A DNA stretch of 64,000 nucleotides from a bacterium (GTDB lineage: Bacteria > UBA8248), in assembly GCA_022825065.1 (NCBI GenBank), contig JAJDYR010000037.1, positions 7,805 to 71,804 of the forward strand. The letters are read 5' to 3'. Each line of letters starts with the position of its first letter. The stretch's first letter is position 1. Positions 2 through 13,834 of this stretch are shown here, one piece after another. The position numbers and the translations under genes were made by a program. The notes beneath the pieces were generated by a model that searched no databases, was not told the origin of the DNA, and saw only the letters and a list, made by a program, of their open reading frames with translations.

Positions 2-2722
2 TCCACGGAGATCAAAGATGATTTGCTGGATTTGCCCAACATTTCAAAGGTGGTTCTGAGCGGCTTGAGAGATTGGGAAATTTCAATCGAAGTCTCTGAG
101 GAGATGTTGCGCCGCTATGGTCTGACGTTTGATCGGGTGGCGAATATCATTCGCAAGAATGTGCTGGAACTCTCAGGCGGGGATATCCGTTCTGTGGAGC
201 GGAGAATCAGAATCAGGACGTTGGGAAAGCGCTACACTGGCCCGGAGTTCGAGCGGCTTGAAATACTTACCCAAAAAGACGGGGCCATTCTAAGACTTGG
301 CGATATTGCACGTGTGGTCGACGCTTTTGAGGATAGCGATACATCGGGCCGATTCAACGGGAAGCCGGCTGCGCTCATCATGGTGTATCGAACCGATGAG
401 GAAGATGCGCTTTCGATTTCTAAAACGGTAGTTGAATATGTCAAGAGAAAGCGAAAAGAACTGCCCGAAGGATTGGATCTGGCCCATTGGGCGGATACCT
501 CGCGTTTGATACAGGACCGGCTCGATCTTTTGTTGAGAAACGGTCGCGTCGGACTCGTTTTGGTTTTCCTCTCCATGTGGCTGTTTTTGAACATTCGCCT
601 TTCGTTTTGGGTGGCTATGGGAATTCCCGTCTCCCTGTTGACGGCTTTGGGTTTTTTGAACTTTTCCGGCAGCACGCTCAACATGCTCTCGATGTTCGCC
701 TTCATCATGGTTTTAGGGATACTGGTGGACGACGCCATCGTAGTGGCTGAAAATATCTATTCGCATATGGAAAGAGGAAAGAATCGCGTTCAGGCGGCAA
801 TTGACGGCTGTTATGAAGTCGCCCTGCCGGTTATCGCCACTGTCATGACATCCATTGTGGCTTTCGCTCCCTTGCTGATGGTGGCAGGAACGGTAGGAAA
901 ATTCATGGCGGTGCTTCCGGCGGCCATCATCGCCGCGTTAATCGCTTCTCTCATCGAATCGTTATTCATTCTGCCGGCTCATCTGGGACATTGGGTGCGG
1001 CCTCCCAGGGCGGGTGGACTCTCATCTCGTATGAGAAACACCATCGATAGAGGCATAAACTGGCTCATCCATCGGTTTTATGCGCCAATTCTGGAATTTT
1101 GCCTCAACGCCAGGTATCTGGTCATCGCCCTGGCTTTGGTGGTTTTTATGGTGACGGTAGGTTTGGCGGTTGGCGGGCATGTGAGGTTTTTATTTTTCCC
1201 AAAAATCGATTCCGATTGGGTGCATGTGAAAATTCTGTTTCCGCTGGGAACCCCGATTCGGCAAACGAAAAACGCGGCGCAAAAGATTGAGCAGGCAGCC
1301 GTTGCTCTTGACGAGGTTGTTCGCTCGAAAACGGGTGAACCGGTCGTCAAGCATGTATTTACAATACTGGGTGAGAATATCGACCCGGGCGGCGGGCGCA
1401 TCGTGGGAGGGAGCCATATGGCGCAGGTGATCCTCGAGATGCTGCCCTCGGAAGCCAGGGGAATCAGTTCTGAGGAAATCATCAACCGCTGGCGTTTGAA
1501 TACAGGAGAAATTCCCGATGTAACGAGCCTTACTTTCAGTACAGGAGGAGCCGGTCCGCCCGGTGGCAAACCTATAGATGTGCAGTTTTATGGTGATGAC
1601 ATCGGGACTTTGAGAAGAGTAGCTCAGGAGTTCAAGCGAGAGTTAACCAAATATCCCGGCCTATATGATGTTCAAGATGATTTCCGGCCCGGGAAGCTTG
1701 AGTTCCGAACATCATTGAAGCCGCAGGCCCGCGTTCTGGGTGTGAATCTGGATGACCTGGGGCGTCAGTTACGCGCGCGCTTTTTCGGGCTGCAAGTCCT
1801 GCGTCTGCAACGTGGCCGTGATGACGTGAAGGTCAAGCTTCGCTATCCATCCGAGGAAAGGCGTTCTCTGGAAGATATCAGGAAAATGAGGGTCAGGACG
1901 TCCTCAGGGGCGGAAATTCCTTTCCATGAGGTGGCGGAAGTCGAGATGATTCAAGGTCTTGATGCAATAAGACGAGTAGCCAGAGCCAGGGCTATTAACG
2001 TAACGGCCGAAATCGACCAGGATCGCGCCAATCCCACCGAGGTTCTGAACGCCTTGAATGCGAATTTCTTCCCCAAGCTCCTGAACCGCTATAACGGGGT
2101 AGGTATCAGATTCGAGGGTCAGGCCAAAGAGACGAGTGAATCATTCGCCAGCCTGTTTCGCGCTTTTGCGCTTGCAATGGCCGTTATTTTTGCGATTTTG
2201 GCCACTTTGTTCAGAAGCTATTTCCAACCCTTTATTGTCATGAGCGCCATTCCGTTTGGGATCGTTGGCGCAATATGGGGGCATATTGTCATGGGCTTCG
2301 ATATCTCCATCTTGAGTATGATGGGGATTTTGGCTCTTACCGGTGTTGTGGTGAACGACTCTTTGGTGCTTTTGGATTTCGCAAACCGGAGCATAAAAAA
2401 TGGCTTGTCGATTGAGGAGGCGCTTCAGCAGGCCGGTGTCGCCAGATGGAGAGCCATTGTTCTGACCACATTGACTACTGTCGCGGGATTGGGTCCGATG
2501 CTGTTTGAGAAAAGTTTTCAGGCGCAATTCTTGATTCCCATGGCAATTAGTTTATGTTTTGGACTGCTTTTCGCCACGGTGATAACACTCGTTCTCGTTC
2601 CTGTAATTTCTTTGATAGGCAACGACGTCGGGCGTTTTTGGTGGCGTATCTGGACGGGCAGATGGTTGACGAGAGAAGAAGTAGATGTGCATTCTCCTCA
2701 CAAAGAAGAGATAAGCGTTTAA
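2..2722 (+). CDS. RND-family efflux transporter permease (AcrB/CzcA-like), 5' end outside window
   Basis: The ORF is open to the window edge, so the 5' end is missing. The 899-aa product has typical RND interior motifs and 12-TM organisation (e.g. ...VDDAIVVAENI..., ...ALTGVVVNDSLVLLDF...). Confidence 0.85.
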   Translation, partial: STEIKDDLLDLPNISKVVLSGLRDWEISIEVSEEMLRRYGLTFDRVANIIRKNVLELSGGDIRSVERRIRIRTLGKRYTGPEFERLEILTQKDGAILRLGDIARVVDAFEDSDTSGRFNGKPAALIMVYRTDEEDALSISKTVVEYVKRKRKELPEGLDLAHWADTSRLIQDRLDLLLRNGRVGLVLVFLSMWLFLNIRLSFWVAMGIPVSLLTALGFLNFSGSTLNMLSMFAFIMVLGILVDDAIVVAENIYSHMERGKNRVQAAIDGCYEVALPVIATVMTSIVAFAPLLMVAGTVGKFMAVLPAAIIAALIASLIESLFILPAHLGHWVRPPRAGGLSSRMRNTIDRGINWLIHRFYAPILEFCLNARYLVIALALVVFMVTVGLAVGGHVRFLFFPKIDSDWVHVKILFPLGTPIRQTKNAAQKIEQAAVALDEVVRSKTGEPVVKHVFTILGENIDPGGGRIVGGSHMAQVILEMLPSEARGISSEEIINRWRLNTGEIPDVTSLTFSTGGAGPPGGKPIDVQFYGDDIGTLRRVAQEFKRELTKYPGLYDVQDDFRPGKLEFRTSLKPQARVLGVNLDDLGRQLRARFFGLQVLRLQRGRDDVKVKLRYPSEERRSLEDIRKMRVRTSSGAEIPFHEVAEVEMIQGLDAIRRVARARAINVTAEIDQDRANPTEVLNALNANFFPKLLNRYNGVGIRFEGQAKETSESFASLFRAFALAMAVIFAILATLFRSYFQPFIVMSAIPFGIVGAIWGHIVMGFDISILSMMGILALTGVVVNDSLVLLDFANRSIKNGLSIEEALQQAGVARWRAIVLTTLTTVAGLGPMLFEKSFQAQFLIPMAISLCFGLLFATVITLVLVPVISLIGNDVGRFWWRIWTGRWLTREEVDVHSPHKEEISV

Positions 2723-2847
2723 TTTGGTACTTGGTAGGATTGTCGGCTAAACAGTTTGCGGGAAAGTTTGTAATTTTTTCCAAGTAAGATTGCATTCATT
2801 CCCAATTTATAATTCCGTGAACAGATGAAGAAAGAGGATACGGTTTT

Positions 2848-3948
2848 ATGTCTTCACAATTCGATGTGCGCTACGGCGAAGAAATAGGAGACAAGATGGA
2901 AGCGGTTGTGATGACCGCGCCCGAAAAGCTTGAAATTCAATCCGTTCCTGTTCCGGAGCCGGATATCGGAGAAGTGCTTGTCAAAGTGGAGTGTACTACG
3001 ATTTGTGGTACTGACATCGAAATTATCAAAGGCGGACACCTCCCCAATTGGCCACCCAAACTTCCAGCTATCCTGGGGCACGAGTGGGCCGGCAGGATCG
3101 TGGCAATGGGTCCTATGACAGAGGGATTCGGTCTTGAGATGGGTGATGCCGTGGCGGGTACGAGCCATGCTGGATGCGGAGCCTGTCGCATGTGCCTGAT
3201 CGGACGCTATAACCTTTGCTATAATTATGGGAATACAATCACAGGCCACAGACAGTATGGGCATATTACGCAGGGTTCGTATGCCGAGTATGTGACAAAC
3301 AACATACGCGCGTTGCACAAGATGCCGGAGGAGATGTCTTTTGAGCATGGCTCAGCCGTAGATCCGGCCGGTTGCGGGTTATGGACGGCGAAACGCGCGG
3401 GTATCAACCCCGGTGATACTGTTGTAATTTTAGGTTCTGGACCAATAGGTGTTTTTGCTTATGAGTCAGCCAGGGCGATGGGCGCAGGGCGCGTGATTGT
3501 CGTGGGTGGTGGCCGGAGACTCGAGATATTAGAGGAACAAGGCGCTGAAGTAGTCAGTTACCGGGATGGTGGTGTGCCGGAACGAATAGATGAGATGACA
3601 AAAGGAAGAAAAGCAAACGTGGTGCTGGAGACGGCTGGAACCACGGATAGCTTTAGATGGAGTGTGGATTGTGGTGGCAAAGGCGCGCGTGTCGCCATTA
3701 CCGGCATACCGGAGAACATTCCTGATATGGCATGGAAACGCGTTGTGCTCGAAGAGATGGATATTTTCGGCGTTCGAGCGAATCCCAATTGCGGAGATGA
3801 GGTTTTGGCGCTCATTCATGCCGGTAGAATGAAAGTGGACCCATATATCACCCATCGTTTTCCTCTCAGGGAATACCAAGAAGCACACGATACGTTTGTA
3901 GCTCGAAAAGATGGCGCCTTGCTCGTGAACCTAACTCCTGGAGAATAA
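2848..3948 (+). CDS. Zn-dependent alcohol dehydrogenase, MDR superfamily (threonine/sorbitol dehydrogenase-like)
   Basis: Catalytic Zn ligand motif CGTDIE..GHEWAG is present, with structural Zn cysteines CGAC..C and a Rossmann GxGxxG (ILGSGPIG). Length is 366 aa. Confidence 0.8.
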   Translation: MSSQFDVRYGEEIGDKMEAVVMTAPEKLEIQSVPVPEPDIGEVLVKVECTTICGTDIEIIKGGHLPNWPPKLPAILGHEWAGRIVAMGPMTEGFGLEMGDAVAGTSHAGCGACRMCLIGRYNLCYNYGNTITGHRQYGHITQGSYAEYVTNNIRALHKMPEEMSFEHGSAVDPAGCGLWTAKRAGINPGDTVVILGSGPIGVFAYESARAMGAGRVIVVGGGRRLEILEEQGAEVVSYRDGGVPERIDEMTKGRKANVVLETAGTTDSFRWSVDCGGKGARVAITGIPENIPDMAWKRVVLEEMDIFGVRANPNCGDEVLALIHAGRMKVDPYITHRFPLREYQEAHDTFVARKDGALLVNLTPGE

Positions 3949-3953
3949 CGGAA

Positions 3954-4355
3954 ATGTCTCAAGGCGAGATGAAGTATGGCGCGAGGATGATTGCGGAGGC
4001 GGCACTCGAGGCCGTTCCGAATCCTTCACAGGAGCGAGATTACGTTGTCGATTTCACCATTCCCGAATTCACCTGTCTTTGCCCGATCAGCAATTTTCCC
4101 GACTTCGCCACGATTCGCATCAAATACATTCCTGGAGACAAGATCGTAGAGTTGAAATCCCTGAAGCTCTACATCAATAATTACCGGGATCGGGAAATTT
4201 TTCATGAACAAGTGGTCAGCACCATCCTTGATGACATGGTTGAAGTTTGTGAACCGAAGTGGATGTGGATTGAAGGCGATTTTAATGTGAGGGGAAATAT
4301 CAAAACGAAAATTAGGGCTACTCATGGCGTGAGACCACAAGATGTTACAGAATAG
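3954..4355 (+). CDS. queF: NADPH-dependent 7-cyano-7-deazaguanine reductase (preQ0 reductase)
   Basis: 133-aa protein carrying the QueF motif E-L-K-S-L-K-L-Y and a catalytic Cys in FTCLCPISNFPD, as in the type-I YkvM-like subfamily. Confidence 0.8.
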   Translation: MSQGEMKYGARMIAEAALEAVPNPSQERDYVVDFTIPEFTCLCPISNFPDFATIRIKYIPGDKIVELKSLKLYINNYRDREIFHEQVVSTILDDMVEVCEPKWMWIEGDFNVRGNIKTKIRATHGVRPQDVTE

Positions 4356-4454
4356 GTAAATTGCCGATCGAATTTGTACGTTGCGTGGTTAAAGCTATAA
4401 CAGATTGTCGAATGACAAATAAAATTCAGTGGTTTAAGCCATATTTTCTCTGAG

Positions 4455-6710
4455 GTGGAAATGACAGACTATAAAGTAGCGGGTATGGGCCTCACCCGGA
4501 TCGATGCCCCGGACAAAGTAGCTGGAAGTGCCAAATATGCGGCTGATGTCCCATCGAGCCGTGCACTTATCGGGTTGGTCTTGGGCAGCCCGCATCCGTA
4601 TGCAAAGGTGTTAAGCGTGGATGTTTCTAAGGCGCGTAGGATACCTGGCGTCCGTGCTGTCTTGACTCGCGATGAAGCTCCCCGCATTCGATTCGGCGCC
4701 AACATCAAGGATCAGAGTTGGTTTGCGCAGGATGGTTTCGTTCGCTACGGCGGAGAACCGGTGGCTGCCGTGGCCGCAGAAAACATCGATGCCGCCCAAA
4801 CAGCCATCGAATCGATTCGTGTGGAATATGAAGTTTTAGAACCGATAGTAAGCGGCTTGGATAGCCGGGCCGGCAAAGGTCTCGCTGTTCATGAAGATTG
4901 GAGAGAGTTGGGACTTGGCCCGGATGCGAACAAAAACATCATTGCGCGCTTTGAAAAGGAAATTGGAGATGTTGACGCCGGATACGAAGAGGCGGATCGC
5001 ATTTTTGAGCATACTTTTTCCACGCCGTTCGTACATGCCGGCTATATCGAACCTCACGCATGCACTGCCGAGGCAGGTGCCGACGGAAAAGTCACAATCT
5101 GGACGACCACGCAGGATGCGTGGGCCATTCGTGCGGATGTGGCCGAGGCACTTGGGTTTCCGGCAACACAGGTTCGAGTGATCCCGACTGAAATCGGAGG
5201 AGGTTTTGGCGCCAAGCTGAAGAGCACTTACGAGCACATCGCCGCTCTTTTGGCCTTAAGGACAGACCAGGCTGTTCGTATGGAGATGACTCGCGAGGAA
5301 GATCATATCGGAGTGAATCCGAGACACCCTCATTTCATCACGATACGCACGGCGGTGAAGGATGACGGTACGTTTGTCGCTCGCGAACTTGATGTCACGA
5401 TGGATCATGGAGCCTATGGCCGTGGCGCGCCGTTCCAGTGCAGTAGCAAGATGCTGATGGGTTCATGCTCATATCGTATTCCCAACGTCAGGATTCGCGC
5501 ATGTACGGTATATACCAATGGCCCTGTTTGCGGTCCTGTGCGTGCTCCTAGCGGCCCCCAATATCACTTTGCCACCGAAGTGCAGATGGACATCATCGCG
5601 CGCGAAATGGGGATCGACCCACTCGAAATTAGGCGAATTAACTCCCTCCGGCCCGGAGATGTGACACTGGCCGGGAAGGAGGAGGCACCGTCCATGCGTA
5701 GCGTTCTCGACTCAACGGCCGTGGAGGGGGATTGGGGGGAGAAGATTGAGGCGAACGGAGAACTCGAGGGAGAAGGGTGGAAACTCGGCCGCGGCATAGC
5801 TTGTGGGTATTGGCCAGGGCCGGGGGAGGCGTCTAGTTGTACGGTTCGCCTGAATCAGGACGGTACCGTTCAAGTGATAGCGGGAACGGTGAACCTAACG
5901 GGCATGAGTACTTCCATATGCCAACTCGCTGCAGAAGAATTGGGCGTAAGTTTGGATGAAGTGCGTTACACGAACGGAGATACGGATTCAGTGCCTGAAT
6001 CATCGGCGGCATCAGGTAGTAAGGCGACGCGTGCGGTGGGGATGGCTACCTTGAGTGCTGCGCGCGATTTGCGAAACAAGATTTTGAATGTGGCGAGTAT
6101 AAAGCTCGAAGCCGCTGCGGACGATCTGGTATTGGAAGATGGTCAAGTCAGGGTAGCTTCAGCGCCCGACCGGGCTCTTACACTTGCGCAGGTGGCCAAA
6201 GCGGCGCCTGAAATTCAGGGATTTTTAATAGGACAAGGGGAAAGCGCGAAGCCGCCGCCATGTCCAATACATACCGGACAGATAGCGGATGTGGCTGTCA
6301 ATCCCGAGCTCGGCGAGATCAGGGTTTTGCGTCTCACATGTGTCCAGGATGTGGGATTCGCCATCAATCCATTATCCGTTGTGGGCCAGATTGAGGGCGC
6401 TATGCTCCAGGGTCTCGGATTGGCTCTCATGGAAGAACAACCCCGGCGGCCGGATGGAAATTTGCATGGCGATACCTTCCATGAATATCTGATACCTACC
6501 AGCATGGATATGCCCGAACTGAAAGCCGTTTTGTATGACAATCCGGCCGAGGGCACACCCTATGGGATGAGGGGTGTGGGTGAACCGCCCATTGTGGCGA
6601 CTGCAGCGGCGATCGTGAATGCCATACAAGACGCAGTGGGAGTACCTGTTTTTTCACTGCCAGTCGGCCCACACCACATTCGTGAGGCTTTGGCGACGAG
6701 CAGCGTCTAA
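4455..6710 (+). CDS. Xanthine dehydrogenase/aldehyde oxidase family molybdopterin-binding (large) subunit
   Basis: 751-aa protein with N-terminal a/b-hammerhead and MoCo-binding regions (DKVAGSAKYAADV; GGGFG; ...GEPPIVATAAAIVNAI) typical of CoxL/XdhA-like Mo-hydroxylases. No adjacent FeS or FAD subunit genes. Confidence 0.8.
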   Translation: MEMTDYKVAGMGLTRIDAPDKVAGSAKYAADVPSSRALIGLVLGSPHPYAKVLSVDVSKARRIPGVRAVLTRDEAPRIRFGANIKDQSWFAQDGFVRYGGEPVAAVAAENIDAAQTAIESIRVEYEVLEPIVSGLDSRAGKGLAVHEDWRELGLGPDANKNIIARFEKEIGDVDAGYEEADRIFEHTFSTPFVHAGYIEPHACTAEAGADGKVTIWTTTQDAWAIRADVAEALGFPATQVRVIPTEIGGGFGAKLKSTYEHIAALLALRTDQAVRMEMTREEDHIGVNPRHPHFITIRTAVKDDGTFVARELDVTMDHGAYGRGAPFQCSSKMLMGSCSYRIPNVRIRACTVYTNGPVCGPVRAPSGPQYHFATEVQMDIIAREMGIDPLEIRRINSLRPGDVTLAGKEEAPSMRSVLDSTAVEGDWGEKIEANGELEGEGWKLGRGIACGYWPGPGEASSCTVRLNQDGTVQVIAGTVNLTGMSTSICQLAAEELGVSLDEVRYTNGDTDSVPESSAASGSKATRAVGMATLSAARDLRNKILNVASIKLEAAADDLVLEDGQVRVASAPDRALTLAQVAKAAPEIQGFLIGQGESAKPPPCPIHTGQIADVAVNPELGEIRVLRLTCVQDVGFAINPLSVVGQIEGAMLQGLGLALMEEQPRRPDGNLHGDTFHEYLIPTSMDMPELKAVLYDNPAEGTPYGMRGVGEPPIVATAAAIVNAIQDAVGVPVFSLPVGPHHIREALATSSV

Positions 6711-7999: not shown

Positions 8000-8872
8000 T
8001 TGCTTCATGAATCGGGGAAAAATGTGATGGCTACGGACGAACAGACGATTCACCATGAAGACGTGCGGGGGCGTATCCTCTCAGCGGATTCGATGACTTA
8101 TTTTGACGAAAGGGTTGGGGAAAGGGACGTTCTCGTTAGTGGTTCCTATGCCGCACGAATGACGATTGCCTGGGCAATGCGCTTGGGGGCGAGAGCAATC
8201 ATTGCCCATGCAGCGGGAGTCGGGAAGGATAATGCGGGGATCAGCGGCTTATCTTTGGCTCAGGAATATCATGTACCTGCGTTGGCGTGTGAAACCATGT
8301 CCGCGAGACTCGCCGTGGGAGAATCCGTGTATGAAGGCGAAGTCGGTCATGCGAATCAAGCGGCTGAAAACCTTGGTGTTGAAATCGGTCAATCCATAGC
8401 AGATGCTTCGGGTTGTTTGCTCGATGCCGAAACGGGCCGGAAAGTAATTGTCGAGGAAAGTCTTGATGATAAAATTTATGAGCTGGAGCAATTTCCGAAT
8501 GGTAATATACGCGCTTCCTGGGGAATTCCCGTCCTGCGTTCTATCAAGGAACCAAGGCCCCAAGATGTTTTTATCCAAGCTTCTCATTGCGGACTTACTC
8601 TTGTCCCTCACGTTATGAAGCTTAGCCTGAAGGGTGTAATTGCGAATGACGCGGGCCGGGGGAAAGATGATTCCGGTATCGCATCTTTCCCCTTTCTGGC
8701 GCGAGAGGGTATCGCGGCGGCGGCGGTTGGCGCGATGAGCGCGCGCATTGGTGATGTGATGAGCACATGGGAAGACGGCGTGATTTCATGCATGAATGAA
8801 GTAGCGGAAAAGCGCGGAGTACGAGAAGGCATGAGGACGCGAGAGGCGGCTCACGCCATGCTCAATCGTTAG
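8000..8872 (+). CDS. Hypothetical protein (no family recognised); start may be ATG at 8027
   Basis: 290-aa ORF at native GC with no competing ORF. No motif recognised. Confidence 0.45.
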   Translation: MLHESGKNVMATDEQTIHHEDVRGRILSADSMTYFDERVGERDVLVSGSYAARMTIAWAMRLGARAIIAHAAGVGKDNAGISGLSLAQEYHVPALACETMSARLAVGESVYEGEVGHANQAAENLGVEIGQSIADASGCLLDAETGRKVIVEESLDDKIYELEQFPNGNIRASWGIPVLRSIKEPRPQDVFIQASHCGLTLVPHVMKLSLKGVIANDAGRGKDDSGIASFPFLAREGIAAAAVGAMSARIGDVMSTWEDGVISCMNEVAEKRGVREGMRTREAAHAMLNR

Positions 8873-8894
8873 GGTTTAACTCAAGAAGCTGCGC

Positions 8895-8970
8895 TGGTGG
8901 AGGTGAGGGGATTCGAACCCCTGACCTCGTGGGTGCGATCCACGCGCTCTCCCATCTGAGCTACACCCCC
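8895..8970 (-). tRNA. tRNA-Ala (anticodon CGC), CCA encoded
   Basis: The reverse complement reads GGGGGTGTAGCTCAGATGGGAGAGCGCGTGGATCGCACCCACGAGGTCAGGGGTTCGAATCCCCTCACCTCCACCA. This folds as a cloverleaf with the G3:U70 identity pair, anticodon loop AU-CGC-AC and T-loop GGTTCGAATCC. Confidence 0.85.
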
Positions 8971-9023
8971 ACAAAAGGAATATGAAGGTAGGCGAAGGAG
9001 CCTCGGGTGTCAAGTGAAAAAGG

Positions 9024-9305
9024 GAGAGCCGATGAAGAGCTCCCCCTAGGAGACTTCACCGGCTCTCGACCTGCCGCAGAGTCCGCCCGTTTCCCCCGCA
9101 GCAGGGAATTCCGCTCGATTTAATGTGGGAGCCGAAGACTCAACCACCGAGGTGTATTATCCCCGGCTCCCGATCCTGCTGCAGAGTCCGCCCGTTTCCC
9201 CCGCAGCAAGAGAATTCACTTTGGTGAGAGTCGGGGAAAAACCCTCCGAGGATTCTCCCCCGACTCTCGTCCCGTCGCAGAGTCCGCCCGTTGCCCCCCC
9301 GACGG
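9024..9305. repeat. Tandem array of 3 x ~100-bp units, each with two hairpins (type B then type A) with conserved loops and covarying stems
   Basis: Type-B hairpins: GAGAGCCG/CGGCTCTC (9024-9067), GGGAGCCG/CGGCTCCC (9127-9171), GAGAGTCGGGG/CCCCGACTCTC (9226-9268). Type-A hairpins at 9070-9105, 9174-9209 and 9270-9305 have a near-invariant loop CAGAGTCCGCCCGTT(T/G)CCCCC and stems TGCTGC/GCAGCA versus CCCGTCG/CGACGGG. Confidence 0.6.
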
Positions 9306-9320
9306 GTAACAACTGATTTT

Positions 9321-12300
9321 TTAAGAACATCCACTCGTCGCACCGCAAGTCATGCATTTCAGGCAGGTACCGTTTCTTACCAGGGTGAATAAACCGCAAT
9401 CGCCACATGCCTCACCCTCGTACCCTTTGGCGCGGGCTTCTTCGATACGCGAATCGAGGGCGGAGCCTGCTTCTGCGATAGGCGTCAACGAAGCGAAGGT
9501 GGATTCTTTCTCATAATTCAGGCTTATCCGGTCACTACGCGGTGCGCTTGCATCTGGTCCCGGGAATATGGTTTGAATCTCCTCTTCTTCCTCGGTGTCG
9601 AACTCGGGGATCTCTTCCTGAGGGCGCCCAATGGTATCGCTCCTCAGGTCCTCCGACACCACTTGCGCAAGGTCGTGGCGTCCGAGATATGAAACTGCCA
9701 ACTCACGGAAGATGTAATCGATGATGGATGTGCTCATCTTGATATGCGGGTTGCCTGAAACCATGCCCCCTGGTTCGAAGCGGGTGAAAACAAATGCATC
9801 CACAAATTCATCCAGAGGGACGCCATGCTGTAACCCCAGGGAAATGGCGATGGCGAAACAGTTCATAAGGCTTCTGAAGGCGGCGCCTTCTTTGTGCATA
9901 TCTATGAAAATTTCACCAATCGAACCATCCTCGTATTCCCCGGTTCTAAGATACACCTTGTGCCCGCCGATGACGGCTTTTTGGGTGTATCCACCGCGAC
10001 GGGTAGGCAACTTGCGTCTTCTGGATTGGTAAATAATCCGGCGCACAATCTGCTGGGCTACGTGCATGGGTGCGCTTTGGGAAGCTGGTTCTTCTTCACT
10101 GATGTCAGCGAAGATTTCCGCTTCGCTTAGCGCGGAAAGTGGCTGGCTTAGTTTCGAACCATCACGGTAAATCGCAATGGCTTTGGTCATCCGCTGCCAC
10201 GATTCGCGGTAGATATCCAAGATGTCTTGAATTGTGGATTCTGATGGCATGTTGATGGTTTTGCTGATAGCGCCTGATATAAAAGGCTGCGCCGCCGCCA
10301 TCATCCGAACATGGGCCATTGGGCTGATGAAGCGCTTGCCTTCGCGTCCGCATTTGCTGGCGCAATCAAAAACAGCTAGATGTTCTTCTTTTAGGTGGGG
10401 AGCGCCTTCCAGCGTCATTTTGCCGCAAACGAAATCATTCGCTTCGCTGATTTGCTCCGGGGTGAAACCAATGGCTTCCAGCAGATTCAGGTTCCAGTCG
10501 GCAATTTGCGCTTCATTGAACTCTAATTGTTCACGGCAGAAGTCTTCTCCAAGGGAGTATTTGTTGAAGGCGAACTGGATTTCAAATGCCCCCTCAAGCG
10601 CGGCTTCCACCTTTTCGAGGGCCTTGCTGGTGAACCCTTTTGCGTGTAGAGATTCTGGATTGATGTGAGGCGCATTCGTGAGGGTGCCCCGCCCCCGGCA
10701 GTAGGTGACGATTTCGCGGATTTCTTCGTCATCATAACCCAGATGCCGCAAGGCAAGAGGAACGGACTGGTTGATGATCTTGAAGTAACCGCCCCCCGCC
10801 AGTTTCTTGAATTTCACCAAAGCAAAATCAGGCTCGATTCCGGTTGTGTCGCAATCCATTACCAAGCCAATAGTGCCCGTCGGTGCGATGACAGTAGCTT
10901 GCGCATTCCGGTAGCCGTTTCGATAGCCGATGGCCAAAGCGTCATCCCACGCCTCTCGCGCCGCCTGGAGAAGATAATGGGGACAGGTTTCCGCATCGAT
11001 TCCTTTTGGCGCTTTAGAGAGCATTTCGTATTCGGCTTCAGGCACTGAATAAGCTGCGCGGCGGTGGTTTCTCAGAACGCGCAACATGTGCTCTTGATTG
11101 TCTTGATACCTGACGAAAGCGCCCAGTTCTCCGGCCATCTCGGCGCTTGTGGCGTACGAGCAGCCTGTCATGATGGAGGTGAGAGCCCCGCACCACGCTT
11201 CCGCTTCCGGTGAATCGTAAGGGATGCCGAGAACCATCAACAAGGTGCCCAGATTGGCGTATCCAAGCCCCAGGGTACGATACTCGAATGAGCGTTTGGC
11301 TATTTCGGGACTGGGGAATTGCGCCATCAGCACTGAAATTTCAAGGACGACTGTCAATAGGCGGATAACGTGGCGATAGTCTTCTATCTGAAAATGGTTC
11401 TTTTCAGTATCCAAAAATTTCATGAGATTCATCGATGCCAGATTGCATGCGGTGTCATCCAGGAACATGTATTCCGAGCAGGGATTAGAGCCGTTGATGC
11501 GCCCATCGGCGGCGCACGTGTGCCAGTCGTTGATGGTCGAATCGAATTGAAGACCGGGATCTGCGCAACACCACGCCGCGTATCCAATCTGATCCCAAAG
11601 CTCTTTCGAGTTGACGGAACCGGCGATTTTACCATCGGTGCGCCGAATCAGGTTCCAATCCGTATTTTTCTCGATGGCTTTCATGAATTCGTCTGAAACG
11701 CGTATGGAATTATTCGAGTTTTGCCCGGACACCGAGGTGTAGGCCTCGCCTTCCCAATTCGTGTCGAATTCCTCGAACTCGATTCCGGTGATTCCTTGCC
11801 GCGCGAGTTGAAGGGTTCGATGAATATAATTGTCCGGAACACCGGCTAGCCTTGCGGCGCGTATCGCTTTGGCGAGTGATGGGTTCTTATCCGGCTGATG
11901 GAGGTTGCCGTTCAATCCCGGGTTTTCCCCCTCCTGGCAAGCCACGAGAATAGCGTTCATGTGCCGGTTGCACATCTTGCTGCCCGAAACCAGGGCAGCC
12001 ACTTTCTGTTCTTCATTCACCTTCCAGTTGATGAATTCCTCGATGTCGGGATGATCGATGTCGAGCGTGACCATCTTCGCTGCCCGGCGTGTCGTGCCGC
12101 CCGACTTGATGGCGCCCGCGGCGCGGTCCCCAATCTTGAGGAAACTCATGAGGCCGGAGCTTCTTCCGCCTCCCGAGAGAGATTCCCCTTCCGCTCTCAA
12201 GCTCGAGAAATTCGTGCCGGTGCCGGAGCCGTATTTGAAGATGCGCGCCTCGCGCGTCCATAAATCCATGATCCCGCCCTCGTTGACGAGATCGTCTTTC

Positions 12301-12929
12301 ACCGATTGGATGAAGCACGCATGCGGCTGGGGACGTTCATAGGCGTTGGTGGAGCGGAGTATTTCCCCGGTTTCGGGGTCGCAATAGAAATGGCCCTGGG
12401 CGGGGCGCGTAATGCCGTAAGCCCAGTGGAGGCCCGTATTGAACCACTGAGGCGAGTTGGGAGCCGCCATCTGGCTCGCAAGTATGTATAAGAGCTCCTC
12501 GTAAAACGCCTTGGCGTCCTCTTCGGTGTGAAAATAACCGTGTTTCCAGCCCCAATACGTCCAGCATCCCGCCAGACGGTGGAAAACGTCCCGCGCGTCT
12601 TGCTCGCTCCCGTATTGCTCATCCTCGGGCAGGGATTCGAGTTTTTCCGTGTCTGGCTCCGAGCGCTGCAGCCACTCGGGCACGCCGTCTTCGGGAATCT
12701 TTTTCAAATGGGCGGGGACGCCGGCTTTCCGGAAGTATTTTTGCGCCAGGATGTCGACGGCCACCTGAGACCAGCTCTCGGGCGCCAGGATGTCCTTCGC
12801 TTCGAAGACGAGCGAGCCGTCCGGGTTCGTGATGCGCGAGGTGCGCGGCGCGAAACCGACCTCGCCGTACGCATCGTCTCCAGCCCGGGTAAAACGCCTC
12901 GTCAACTCCACTTTCAGCCTCCTCCGCAA
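9321..12929 (-). CDS. nrdJ: Class II adenosylcobalamin-dependent ribonucleoside-diphosphate/triphosphate reductase
   Basis: 1202-aa ORF with RNR class II hallmarks (ATP-cone-less N-terminus, active-site region ...[21 protein letters not shown]...) and a C-terminal Cys-rich Zn ribbon CGDCG...CLKCMTCG. Confidence 0.85.
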
Positions 12930-13376
12930 GGGCGCCCCGCTGTGTCGGGGACATATTTAGTATGGCGAAATCGAACCGTAACACTAAATGTAGTATGCTT
13001 TGCCCTCGTCTGTCAATACCCTAAAAACAGATATACACAAAATATATGAACTTACCCACACCTTATCCCCAAATGTTGTGTTTTCCTGTGGATAACCGGC
13101 GCAAGAAGAGAGCGGAGGGCTGAGACCCGCCCGGTTATCCCCCGCCGCCTCGTTTCCAGAAGCGGCGGCGCGCCCTTCATGGACGCTCCGGAGCGCCTGA
13201 ACCCGGAGGGCGCGGCCGCTGTCCGGCGCGCCGGTATCGCGTGAGAACGCCCGCAAAAACGCCTCGGATGCGCCCGGAAAGGCATCGTTAATTTATCGAA
13301 AAACCCCGTGAATTTATCTAATTATATCGAATTGTTTCAGCCTTTTTACCGATTTTTTCTCCTCAATCCCGACCGA

Positions 13377-13445
13377 TGAAGGAGGGATTGACGCGACTGG
13401 GGAAGGAGGGATTGACGCGACCAGGGAGGGAGGGATTGCAATTCC
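13377..13445. repeat. Three tandem 22-23-bp direct repeats GAAGGAGGGATTGACGCGAC(Y)(R)GG
   Basis: The sequence gaaggagggattgacgcgactgg / ggaaggagggattgacgcgacca / gggagggagggattgcaattcc. It is preceded by an inverted partner, AATCCC...GGGATT. Confidence 0.5.
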
Positions 13446-13834
13446 CCTGGGCGCGGAAGATCGCCCCCGCTCGACCCGGATCGTCTTCTCCATTTTCTCC
13501 CCTCCTTTCATCGCCGGGAACGATTTCTTTCCCGCGCGGAATTCTCGCCCATGCAGGCGAAAACCCGCTGACGGCAATTGCGGGGAGATGCGTGGTTCCC
13601 AGCGGCCGACCACATCGGCGCGCGCGCCGTCATCGTCCAGGCGCTCGATGAGGAGGCCGGAAATTTCTGCGAGCGCTTCGGCTTCCGCGCGTTCCCGGAT
13701 CGCGAGCCGCTCATGCTGCTGCTGAGGATATCGGATTTAAGGGACATGTTTTAGGGTAGGGCGTGCGCGGATTCGGAGATAGGCGGCTTGGCTCAAGGTT
13801 GGCTGAGCGATGGATTATCGCAGGTACGCTCCGC

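Follow-up and report, generated by a model that had tools for sequence, protein, structure and literature searches.

Tandem two-hairpin modules between nrdJ and tRNA-Ala(CGC) in Nitrospinota and relatives: a probable structured RNA tail of the nrdJ message

In a 64,000-nucleotide (nt) stretch of bacterial DNA (GTDB lineage UBA8248; GenBank assembly GCA_022825065.1, contig JAJDYR010000037.1, positions 7,805 to 71,804), hereafter the window, a non-coding gap of 350 nt separates the stop codon of nrdJ, which encodes a class II ribonucleotide reductase, from a tRNA-Ala(CGC) gene on the same strand. The gap holds a hairpin array on the minus (nrdJ) strand, 9306–9020, consisting of three tandem modules of ~85 nt, each built of a hairpin A, a linker and a hairpin B. 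The nrdJ stop codon occupies 9323–9321 and the first hairpin begins 14 nt past the nrdJ end, so that the placement 3′ of nrdJ and 5′ of tRNA-Ala, proposed in a first-pass annotation that had seen the sequence alone, stands. The features of the locus are as follows.

9321–12929, minus strand: nrdJ, class II (B12-dependent) ribonucleotide reductase, an open reading frame (ORF) of 1202 amino acids (aa) with PF02867, PF08471 and PF12637
9222–9306, minus strand: unit 1, the first in RNA sense (covariance model R1, 94 bits, E 1e-16; inverted repeat I1; minimum-free-energy fold)
9306–9271, minus strand: hairpin A of unit 1, with 5′ arm 9306–9295, loop 9294–9283 (the GGCAACGGGCGGA region) and 3′ arm 9282–9271
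9270–9269 and 9268–9226, minus strand: linker AC and hairpin B of unit 1 (about 20 base pairs (bp), tip CCUCGGAGG), followed by a tail ACCA
9123–9210, minus strand: unit 2 (R1, 71 bits, E 4e-12; minimum-free-energy fold)
9210–9175 and 9174–9172, minus strand: hairpin A of unit 2 (CUUGCUGCGGGG / GAAACGGGCGGA / CUCUGCAGCAGG) and linker AUC
9171–9127, minus strand: hairpin B of unit 2, a ‘middle-type’ B whose upper part is longer and imperfect
9020–9105, minus strand: unit 3, the last (R1, 90 bits, E 6e-16; inverted repeat I4)
9105–9070, 9069–9068 and 9067–9024, minus strand: hairpin A, linker UC and hairpin B of unit 3
9015–9067, minus strand: intrinsic-terminator-like element from a terminator scan, the B hairpin of unit 3 followed by CC-UUUUU (U-run 9021–9017)
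8985–9013, minus strand: sigma-70-type promoter-like motif for tRNA-Ala, read from the sequence (TTGACA 9013–9008, 17-nt spacer, TACCTT 8990–8985)
8895–8970, minus strand: tRNA-Ala(CGC), called by ARAGORN and by the Rfam tRNA model, the conserved downstream neighbour of the array

The three units, present where the first-pass annotation had placed them, are marked by the 21-mer CAGAGTCCGCCCGTT(T/G)CCCCC, which occurs exactly three times in the window (plus strand, 9077, 9182 and 9278) with 105 and 96 bp between copies, and three matches were reached by none of 100 shuffles. Searches with the 21-mer and with R1 found no copies in the window besides these three, and Tandem Repeats Finder missed the array because the units are only about 70% alike. 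All of the perfect stems quoted at first are present, but both hairpins had been drawn too small, since G.U pairing does not show when the plus strand is read, and the order of the hairpins has to be turned round: read as RNA, the minus strand runs from hairpin A over a linker of 2–3 nt to hairpin B, not from B to A. Hairpin A, initially given a stem of 6–7 bp, has 12 bp (for example arms CCUGCUGCGGGG / CUCUGCGGCAGG around the 12-nt loop GAAACGGGCGGA), because four pairs counted as loop (RGGG/CUCU, with two G.U) are in fact formed; its loop comprises 11–13 nt across units and ends in the invariant ACGGGCGGA, and sequence is conserved in the four uppermost pairs of its stem (R-U, G-C, G.U, G-C). 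Hairpin B likewise exists, but its supposed loop of 21–29 nt is mostly paired around a CCU-NGG-RGG tip, giving a near-continuous helix of about 20 bp with conserved base and tip and a folding energy of about −25 to −43 kcal/mol in each copy. The units are joined by A/U-rich, single-stranded linkers of 12–25 nt, often containing GAAUUYC. As a whole the minus strand folds with −178 kcal/mol (z −7.3) versus −134 kcal/mol (z −3.9) for the plus strand, an advantage that is due to G.U pairs.

The compensatory stem changes first noticed among the three local copies extend to 75 distinct homologous units. A MAFFT alignment of 54 distinct units, scored on the two-hairpin structure against 500 column shuffles, had 92.9% of its cells paired and showed double compensatory changes in 22 of the 32 pairs; all measures beat every one of the 500 shuffles except the number of further pair types, which was matched in 32 of them. 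A second alignment, made with R1, covered 94 units (75 distinct) taken from the window and 32 loci, and here 95.6% of cells were paired (83.7% in shuffles) with double compensatory changes in 23 of the 32 pairs; being fitted to the model, this alignment inflates pairing somewhat, and the MAFFT-only alignment agrees with it, as does RNAalifold, which independently predicts the same two hairpins. When the 3′ partners were slid by 1–3 columns, pairing fell to 46–53% and the covariation score from 0.475 to 0.10–0.16. These comparisons indicate that the secondary structure of the module is under selection, as had been suspected. The first suggestion had left open RNA or cruciform DNA, of which the former is borne out and the latter is not: G.U cells number 360 versus nine A.C cells and the antisense strand would pair at 80.7% of cells only, so that the selected structure is formed by the nrdJ strand as a single-stranded nucleic acid, which here means RNA.

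Beyond the pairing, parts of the module are held constant in sequence. At the four-fold degenerate sites in a conserved part of nrdJ, the window and five distant members of the family (L006, L015, L025, L027 and L050) share 33–41% identity, that is, synonymous change is saturated, while CGGGCGGAC is identical in all 97 copies examined. Invariant or more than 90% conserved across units are the core CGGGCGGACUC, the GGG opposite this core, the base of hairpin B (GAGRGCCGG / CCGGCYCUC) and its tip (CCU-NGG-RGG). The A loop displays the invariant CGGGCGGA atop the RGGG/CUCU stem end and varies in its 5′ part in both sequence and length (2–4 nt); the middle of hairpin B varies freely yet stays paired, save for a recurrent mismatch zone. 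In the most divergent array (L050) the A loop may read UCGGGCGGA, and the two G.U pairs atop stem A become A-U or G-C with CGGGCGGACUC fixed, so that at the top of stem A it is pairing that is kept. The joint invariance of the loop, the B base and the B tip would imply specific recognition by a partner.

The array marks one locus in one clade. An exact search for the 19-mer CAGAGTCCGCCCGTTNCCCC in one genome per species (185,579 species), which degenerate copies would escape, returned 27 loci, 26 of them with the C-terminus of nrdJ directly upstream (72–99% amino-acid identity) and, in every case in which the stored piece extends far enough, with tRNA-Ala(CGC) downstream. The 27th (L003) was a chance match that carries the 19-mer with neither hairpin nor R1 match. 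No second locus with the exact 19-mer was present in any scanned genome, including chromosome-level assemblies of 3–4.5 Mb. Named carriers belong to Nitrospinota, Nitrospinaceae or Candidatus Tectomicrobia, and the window itself is near-identical to one of the loci (L022, OZ244799.1). A metagenome scan yielded 22 loci, 12 of which are genuine according to the covariance model and nrdJ/tRNA-Ala synteny; dropped were nine chance matches to the 18- or 19-mer without hairpin or model match and a 61-nt contig-end fragment (L040) without model match. A viral contig collection gave no matches. The first-pass annotation would have been contradicted by a unique locus lacking homologs or by copies lacking stem covariation; homologs with covarying stems are at hand from 26 genomes and 12 metagenome contigs. 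In a protein search with NrdJ, relatives at 72–98% identity form a block, after which identity drops to 67% or less; three further contigs reached through NrdJ homologs (L050, L051 and L052) carry 3–5 units each together with tRNA-Ala(CGC), and two at 65–67% NrdJ identity (L053 and L054) have neither the array nor tRNA-Ala(CGC). The array is restricted to a clade, being carried by NrdJ relatives at 72% identity or more.

Throughout this clade the array lies in nrdJ orientation, 4–27 nt past the nrdJ stop and upstream of tRNA-Ala(CGC), the exception being three Tectomicrobia-type loci (L017/L048, L027 and L034) in which an ORF of ~85–95 aa without Pfam match is interposed between nrdJ and array. 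This ORF reads MRRIW...WVRRNWG (L017 ~215–470, L027, L048), and the array starts a few nt past its stop. In L008 an insert of ~2.7 kb (~2150–4890) carrying an extra tRNA-Ala(GGC) separates the array, which keeps its own U-run, from tRNA-Ala(CGC), showing that the array stays with nrdJ and not with the tRNA. Copy number ranges from one unit (L007) to five (L052). Positional unit types (first, middle and last) are kept across genomes; in one array (L004, 78–268) the middle unit is freshly duplicated, with identical copies, and in three others (L005, L009 and L013) the middle unit has decayed between the first and the last and has lost hairpin A. That units are repeated, with their types kept separate over long times, would suggest that several docking sites are advantageous.

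The end of the array resembles a terminator. A terminator scan matched the apical part only of the last B hairpin (9047–9021) together with the U-run, and among 33 distinct arrays a T-run of four or more follows the last unit in 19; after internal units it was seen in three of 60 cases, internal units being typically followed by ACCAAA or CCUGAAAA instead. The last B hairpin with its U-run is, judging from the sequence, the probable 3′ end of the nrdJ transcript. The earlier statement that the element does not resemble a simple terminator therefore holds for internal units, but the last hairpin looks like an ordinary intrinsic terminator. About 4 nt past the U-run, and ~10 nt past the last B hairpin, begins the promoter-like motif of the tRNA gene, which ends ~14 nt before the tRNA. 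Most Nitrospinota-type loci have it as CTTGACAC-N-CCTA(C/A)(C/T)TTC (TTGACA, 17 nt, TAnnTT), equally far from the tRNA in each; in Tectomicrobia-type loci the distance from array to tRNA is about 400 nt. A consensus promoter scanner did not call the motif because its −10 hexamer is weak. As the tRNA has a promoter-like motif of its own, the array is assigned to the upstream transcript. Neither the scanner nor comparison between genomes found a conserved promoter in the 3′ end of nrdJ, where synonymous sites vary freely, and the simplest reading would be that the array is co-transcribed with nrdJ.

The nrdJ ORF contains the Pfam domains Ribonuc_red_lgC, Ribonuc_red_2_N and TSCPD, and its protein homologs bear the name vitamin B12-dependent ribonucleotide reductase; the real start is likely a GTG at 12911, which is preceded by the Shine-Dalgarno sequence GGAGGAGG. 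Upstream, a block conserved across the clade (12950–13095, minus strand) combines a TTGACA promoter-like motif at ~13014–13009 with palindromes on either side that resemble NrdR boxes, for example CACAACATTTGGGG, CATATATTTTGTGTATAT, ATACTACATTTAGTGT and CATACTAAATATGT. Further upstream, ~90 nt before the nrdJ −35, lies a long hairpin (13095–13150, minus strand; GGAUAACCGGGCG ... CGCCGGUUAUCC), of which the 3′ arm (TTATCCACAGG) is conserved in relatives and the remainder varies; its match to the array model is at chance level (E 0.88), and the A-like CGGGCGG seen there (~13100–13140) is part of this different hairpin and recurs in one other locus only. Upstream of the control region (13385–13470, minus strand) are direct repeats of ~19–25 nt (GGTCGCGTCAATCCCTCCTT) in two full copies and one partial copy. 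On the other side of the array an ORF of 290 aa (8000–8872, plus strand) converges on tRNA-Ala; its Pfam matches are sub-threshold only (DUF1805, IMS) and the gene call is uncertain. Among the annotated immediate neighbours (nrdJ, a molybdopterin oxidoreductase and small ORFs) there is no cas-like gene.

Sequence comparison thus establishes, in our view, the structure and its strand, its conservation, the single locus, the position 3′ of nrdJ and the terminator-like end, and the nrdJ message probably ends in the array as a regulatory tail capped by a terminator. For its function we tentatively favour a structured RNA forming the 3′ tail of the nrdJ mRNA in Nitrospinota, Tectomicrobia and relatives that serves as a multivalent docking platform for a trans-acting partner. 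Transcription from the nrdJ promoter with its NrdR-box-like palindromes would run through the modules as far as the last B hairpin and halt there, at the U-run that this hairpin has gained, thereby separating nrdJ from the tRNA-Ala promoter about 10 nt further on. The modules would act as repeated, sequence-specific docking sites for one partner, either a protein or an RNA carrying CCGCCCG, whose occupancy would set the rate of nrdJ message decay starting at the 3′ end. Instead of this, or besides it, the A/U-rich spacers might be cut to free a sponge RNA derived from the 3′ untranslated region (UTR) in proportion to nrdJ transcription; single-stranded spacers of this kind between very stable hairpins are plausible entry sites for endonucleases, though this evidence is generic and not specific.

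Several observations weigh against docking. Being invariant, the loop cannot covary with anything, and a putative partner is suggested by sequence invariance only; about 35 of the 85 positions are conserved, paired ones among them, which would also fit an RNA with a tertiary fold such as an aptamer or a ribozyme. L007 has a single unit, so multivalency is not essential, and 14 of the 33 arrays, including the Tectomicrobia-type loci, are without a clear U-run after the last unit, so a terminator role is not universal. Finally, co-transcription with nrdJ, the existence of the partner and the effect on stability are all steps that we infer.

The rival explanations differ in what they make of the invariant sequence. 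If the array worked mainly in trans, as a small RNA (sRNA) derived from the 3′ UTR or as ~100-nt RNAs cut from the nrdJ transcript, its G-rich loops would pair with or sponge C-rich RNAs or titrate a global RNA-binding protein. We consider this rather unlikely. In its favour, the array shares the terminator of the mRNA, an invariant single-stranded motif of 9–11 nt is repeated one to five times, each genome has a single locus, as would an sRNA gene, and A/U-rich single-stranded stretches between stable hairpins are the usual setting of RNase E-type cleavage. Yet the 3′ end of nrdJ offers no conserved internal promoter, loop complements within the coding sequence of nrdJ or ahead of the gene are not conserved, known sRNA seeds are usually C/U-rich and unstructured instead of G-rich loops, and the U-tail (4–6 U) is short for Hfq-type sRNAs. 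One such complement, 13 nt long and lying within nrdJ (9458–9470), falls in a variable, non-conserved linker and was set aside as chance. A purely structural role in cis, in which a stack of duplicated terminators without any partner would block 3′-to-5′ exonucleases, reinforce termination and keep read-through off the tRNA-Ala promoter, agrees with the great stability of the B hairpins, the terminator-like last one and the promoter-like motif about 10 nt downstream. Such a barrier needs stems and not sequence, however, whereas the 11-nt loop and stem top, the B base and the B tip are (near-)invariant amid saturated synonymous sites; internal units, moreover, mostly lack U-runs, and the large open loop of hairpin A would be useless as a barrier, so that we judge this role decidedly unlikely. 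Very unlikely, in turn, is a ligand-sensing aptamer or self-processing RNA, a tandem riboswitch- or ribozyme-like module sensing a DNA-precursor metabolite (e.g. cobalamin or a nucleotide) and modulating termination at the last unit or cleaving the transcript. The high share of conserved positions, paired ones included, and the terminator-like last hairpin speak for it, and some riboswitch classes do occur in tandem. The position speaks against it, and led us to discard a riboswitch: the array lies 3′ of the only nearby ORF, nrdJ, and is followed by a tRNA gene that carries a promoter-like motif of its own. There is no visible antiterminator pairing either, multi-stem junctions and supported pseudoknots are missing, and even with E up to 10 allowed, no relevant Rfam family was matched.

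The GGA in the A loop (...GCGGA) and in the B tip (CCU-NGGA-GG) would, in a further proposal, sequester a regulator of the CsrA/RsmA family. Every A loop has GGA at its 3′ edge, NGGAGG occurs in roughly 30 of the 75 distinct B tips, the repeats resemble CsrB/RsmZ, and the spacing of about 40 nt between the two sites is one that a CsrA dimer is reported to bridge. Many B tips, however, read GGG, GUG, GGU or GUA instead, the GGA of the A loop abuts the stem in a 12-nt loop where loops of 4–6 nt are usual, and conservation far exceeds GGA. We regard such a sponge as highly improbable. More remote still is a 16S-directed RNA, in which each module would dock the nrdJ tail on 30S subunits or 16S precursors through pairing of the loop with rRNA. 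The A loop ACGGGCGG (9283–9291, 9187–9195 and 9082–9090, minus strand) is the exact antisense of 16S rRNA 1399–1406 (CCGCCCGU), the universally conserved strand of the decoding centre, as checked on E. coli rrsA (L055; CCGCCCGT at position 1399), and many B tips are Shine-Dalgarno-like (GGAGG). An 8-nt complement to the rRNA operon arises in 6.9% of shuffled loop 9-mers and in 31% of shuffled 14-mers, so that the match could easily be a coincidence and serves as a lead only; if it were true, deoxynucleotide synthesis would be coupled to ribosome availability or assembly, which would explain why the loop cannot change. Scarcely credible, finally, is an element acting as DNA or a mobile element (a cruciform, a protein-binding repeat, a REP- or MITE-like repeat or an integration scar by the tRNA gene), even though the units are palindromic, tandem and next to a tRNA gene: 360 G.U versus nine A.C cells are unexpected for duplex DNA or cruciforms, the locus is single per genome with synteny conserved across Nitrospinota and Candidatus Tectomicrobia, and the viral collection had no match. 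The array lies 5′ of the tRNA, moreover, and integrases target the tRNA 3′ end. Among the called genes of the fetched loci there is no transposase or integrase, apart from one weak exception (HTH_Tnp_1, ~2 kb downstream in L052). A dispersed repeat of the REP, BIME or MITE type was likewise rejected on the strength of one nrdJ-linked locus in each of the 26 genomes and three copies only in the window, with the reservation that degenerate copies could be missed by an exact-pattern scan.

Structured RNAs conserved throughout a phylum are rare in bacterial 3′ UTRs, and modular tandem ones are rarer. This one sits on the message of a DNA-precursor enzyme; its carriers, the principal nitrite oxidisers of the sea and organisms related to them, are hard to culture, and almost nothing of their RNA regulation has been explored. 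Amid saturated synonymous sites, a frozen 11-nt sequence predicts a specific partner, and identifying it would bring to light a new point at which ribonucleotide reductase is controlled post-transcriptionally. Independently of function, the covariance model R1 provides a sharp marker for the clade and for the nrdJ–tRNA-Ala locus.

Known families offer no direct counterpart. In Rfam 15, the region 8500–9800 searched on both strands at E up to 10 gave only tRNA-related and chance microRNA or small nucleolar RNA matches (21 bits or less), a scan of the whole window at gathering thresholds gave only two tRNAs, and full-text literature searches yielded no description of the element. A CRISPR array, dismissed already at the outset, does not fit units that are two-hairpin modules of ~85 nt with A/U-rich linkers of 12–25 nt and whose variable B middle is paired and covarying, not a spacer. 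Small ORFs overlapping the array are excluded as coding by the indels in B and the variable copy number. A tRNA-like element or an acceptor mimic was considered for the ACCA after B and rejected, as the unit types do not share a conserved ACCA and ARAGORN gave no hit there. The 5′ arm of B (ACGAGAG..CCGG) was compared by eye with the sarcin-ricin loop, group II domain V, K-turns or tandem G.A pairs and GNRA loops, and in each case the residues concerned are paired differently or variable.

Other systems are alike in part. A Rho-independent terminator accounts for the last B hairpin with its U-run, but not for the internal units, and a plain terminator has no use for hairpin A or for the conserved sequences in loop, base and tip. 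With the RNA antitoxins of type III toxin–antitoxin systems (ToxI-like) the array shares head-to-tail structured units ending in a terminator; an antitoxin array was rejected, as there is no toxin ORF and what follows downstream is a promoter-like motif and tRNA-Ala(CGC), then a convergent ORF. The units are also about 100 nt long versus 34–45 nt in ToxI-like RNAs, and they are unlike each other with positional orthology across genomes. In CsrB, RsmY and RsmZ, too, repeated hairpins show a short conserved purine motif with GGA, whereas the B tips of the array do not conserve GGA, the core that is conserved (CGGGCGGACUC) is far longer, and the long modules stand in strict register in an mRNA 3′ UTR instead of forming a separate gene. 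A functional analogy only is offered by the 3′ UTR of the transferrin-receptor mRNA, in which five tandem iron-responsive element (IRE) hairpins are bound by IRP, bacterial aconitase–3′ UTR interactions being a related case. Several 3′-UTR hairpins with covarying stems and an invariant loop are found in the array as well, which suggests that one factor, controlling mRNA stability, docks there several times, but sequence and domain of life are unrelated, the loop has 11–13 nt versus 6 nt in the IRE, and each unit has a second hairpin of 20 bp.

Closest in working are regulatory RNAs embedded in 3′ UTRs and the sRNAs and sponges derived from them, such as those of the CpxQ, SroC and DapZ type. 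Like these, the array directly follows the stop codon and lies in the same orientation between it and the intrinsic terminator of its own mRNA, with a conserved single-stranded motif and one locus per genome. It differs in consisting of one to five tandem two-hairpin modules, in presenting its motif as a G-rich hairpin loop and not as an unstructured C/U-rich seed, and in being restricted to Nitrospinota- and Tectomicrobia-type lineages with no match in Rfam by sequence or structure. Taken together, the evidence strongly supports a new structured-RNA family of a known general kind, the regulatory RNA borne by a 3′ UTR, in an unusual modular tandem layout.

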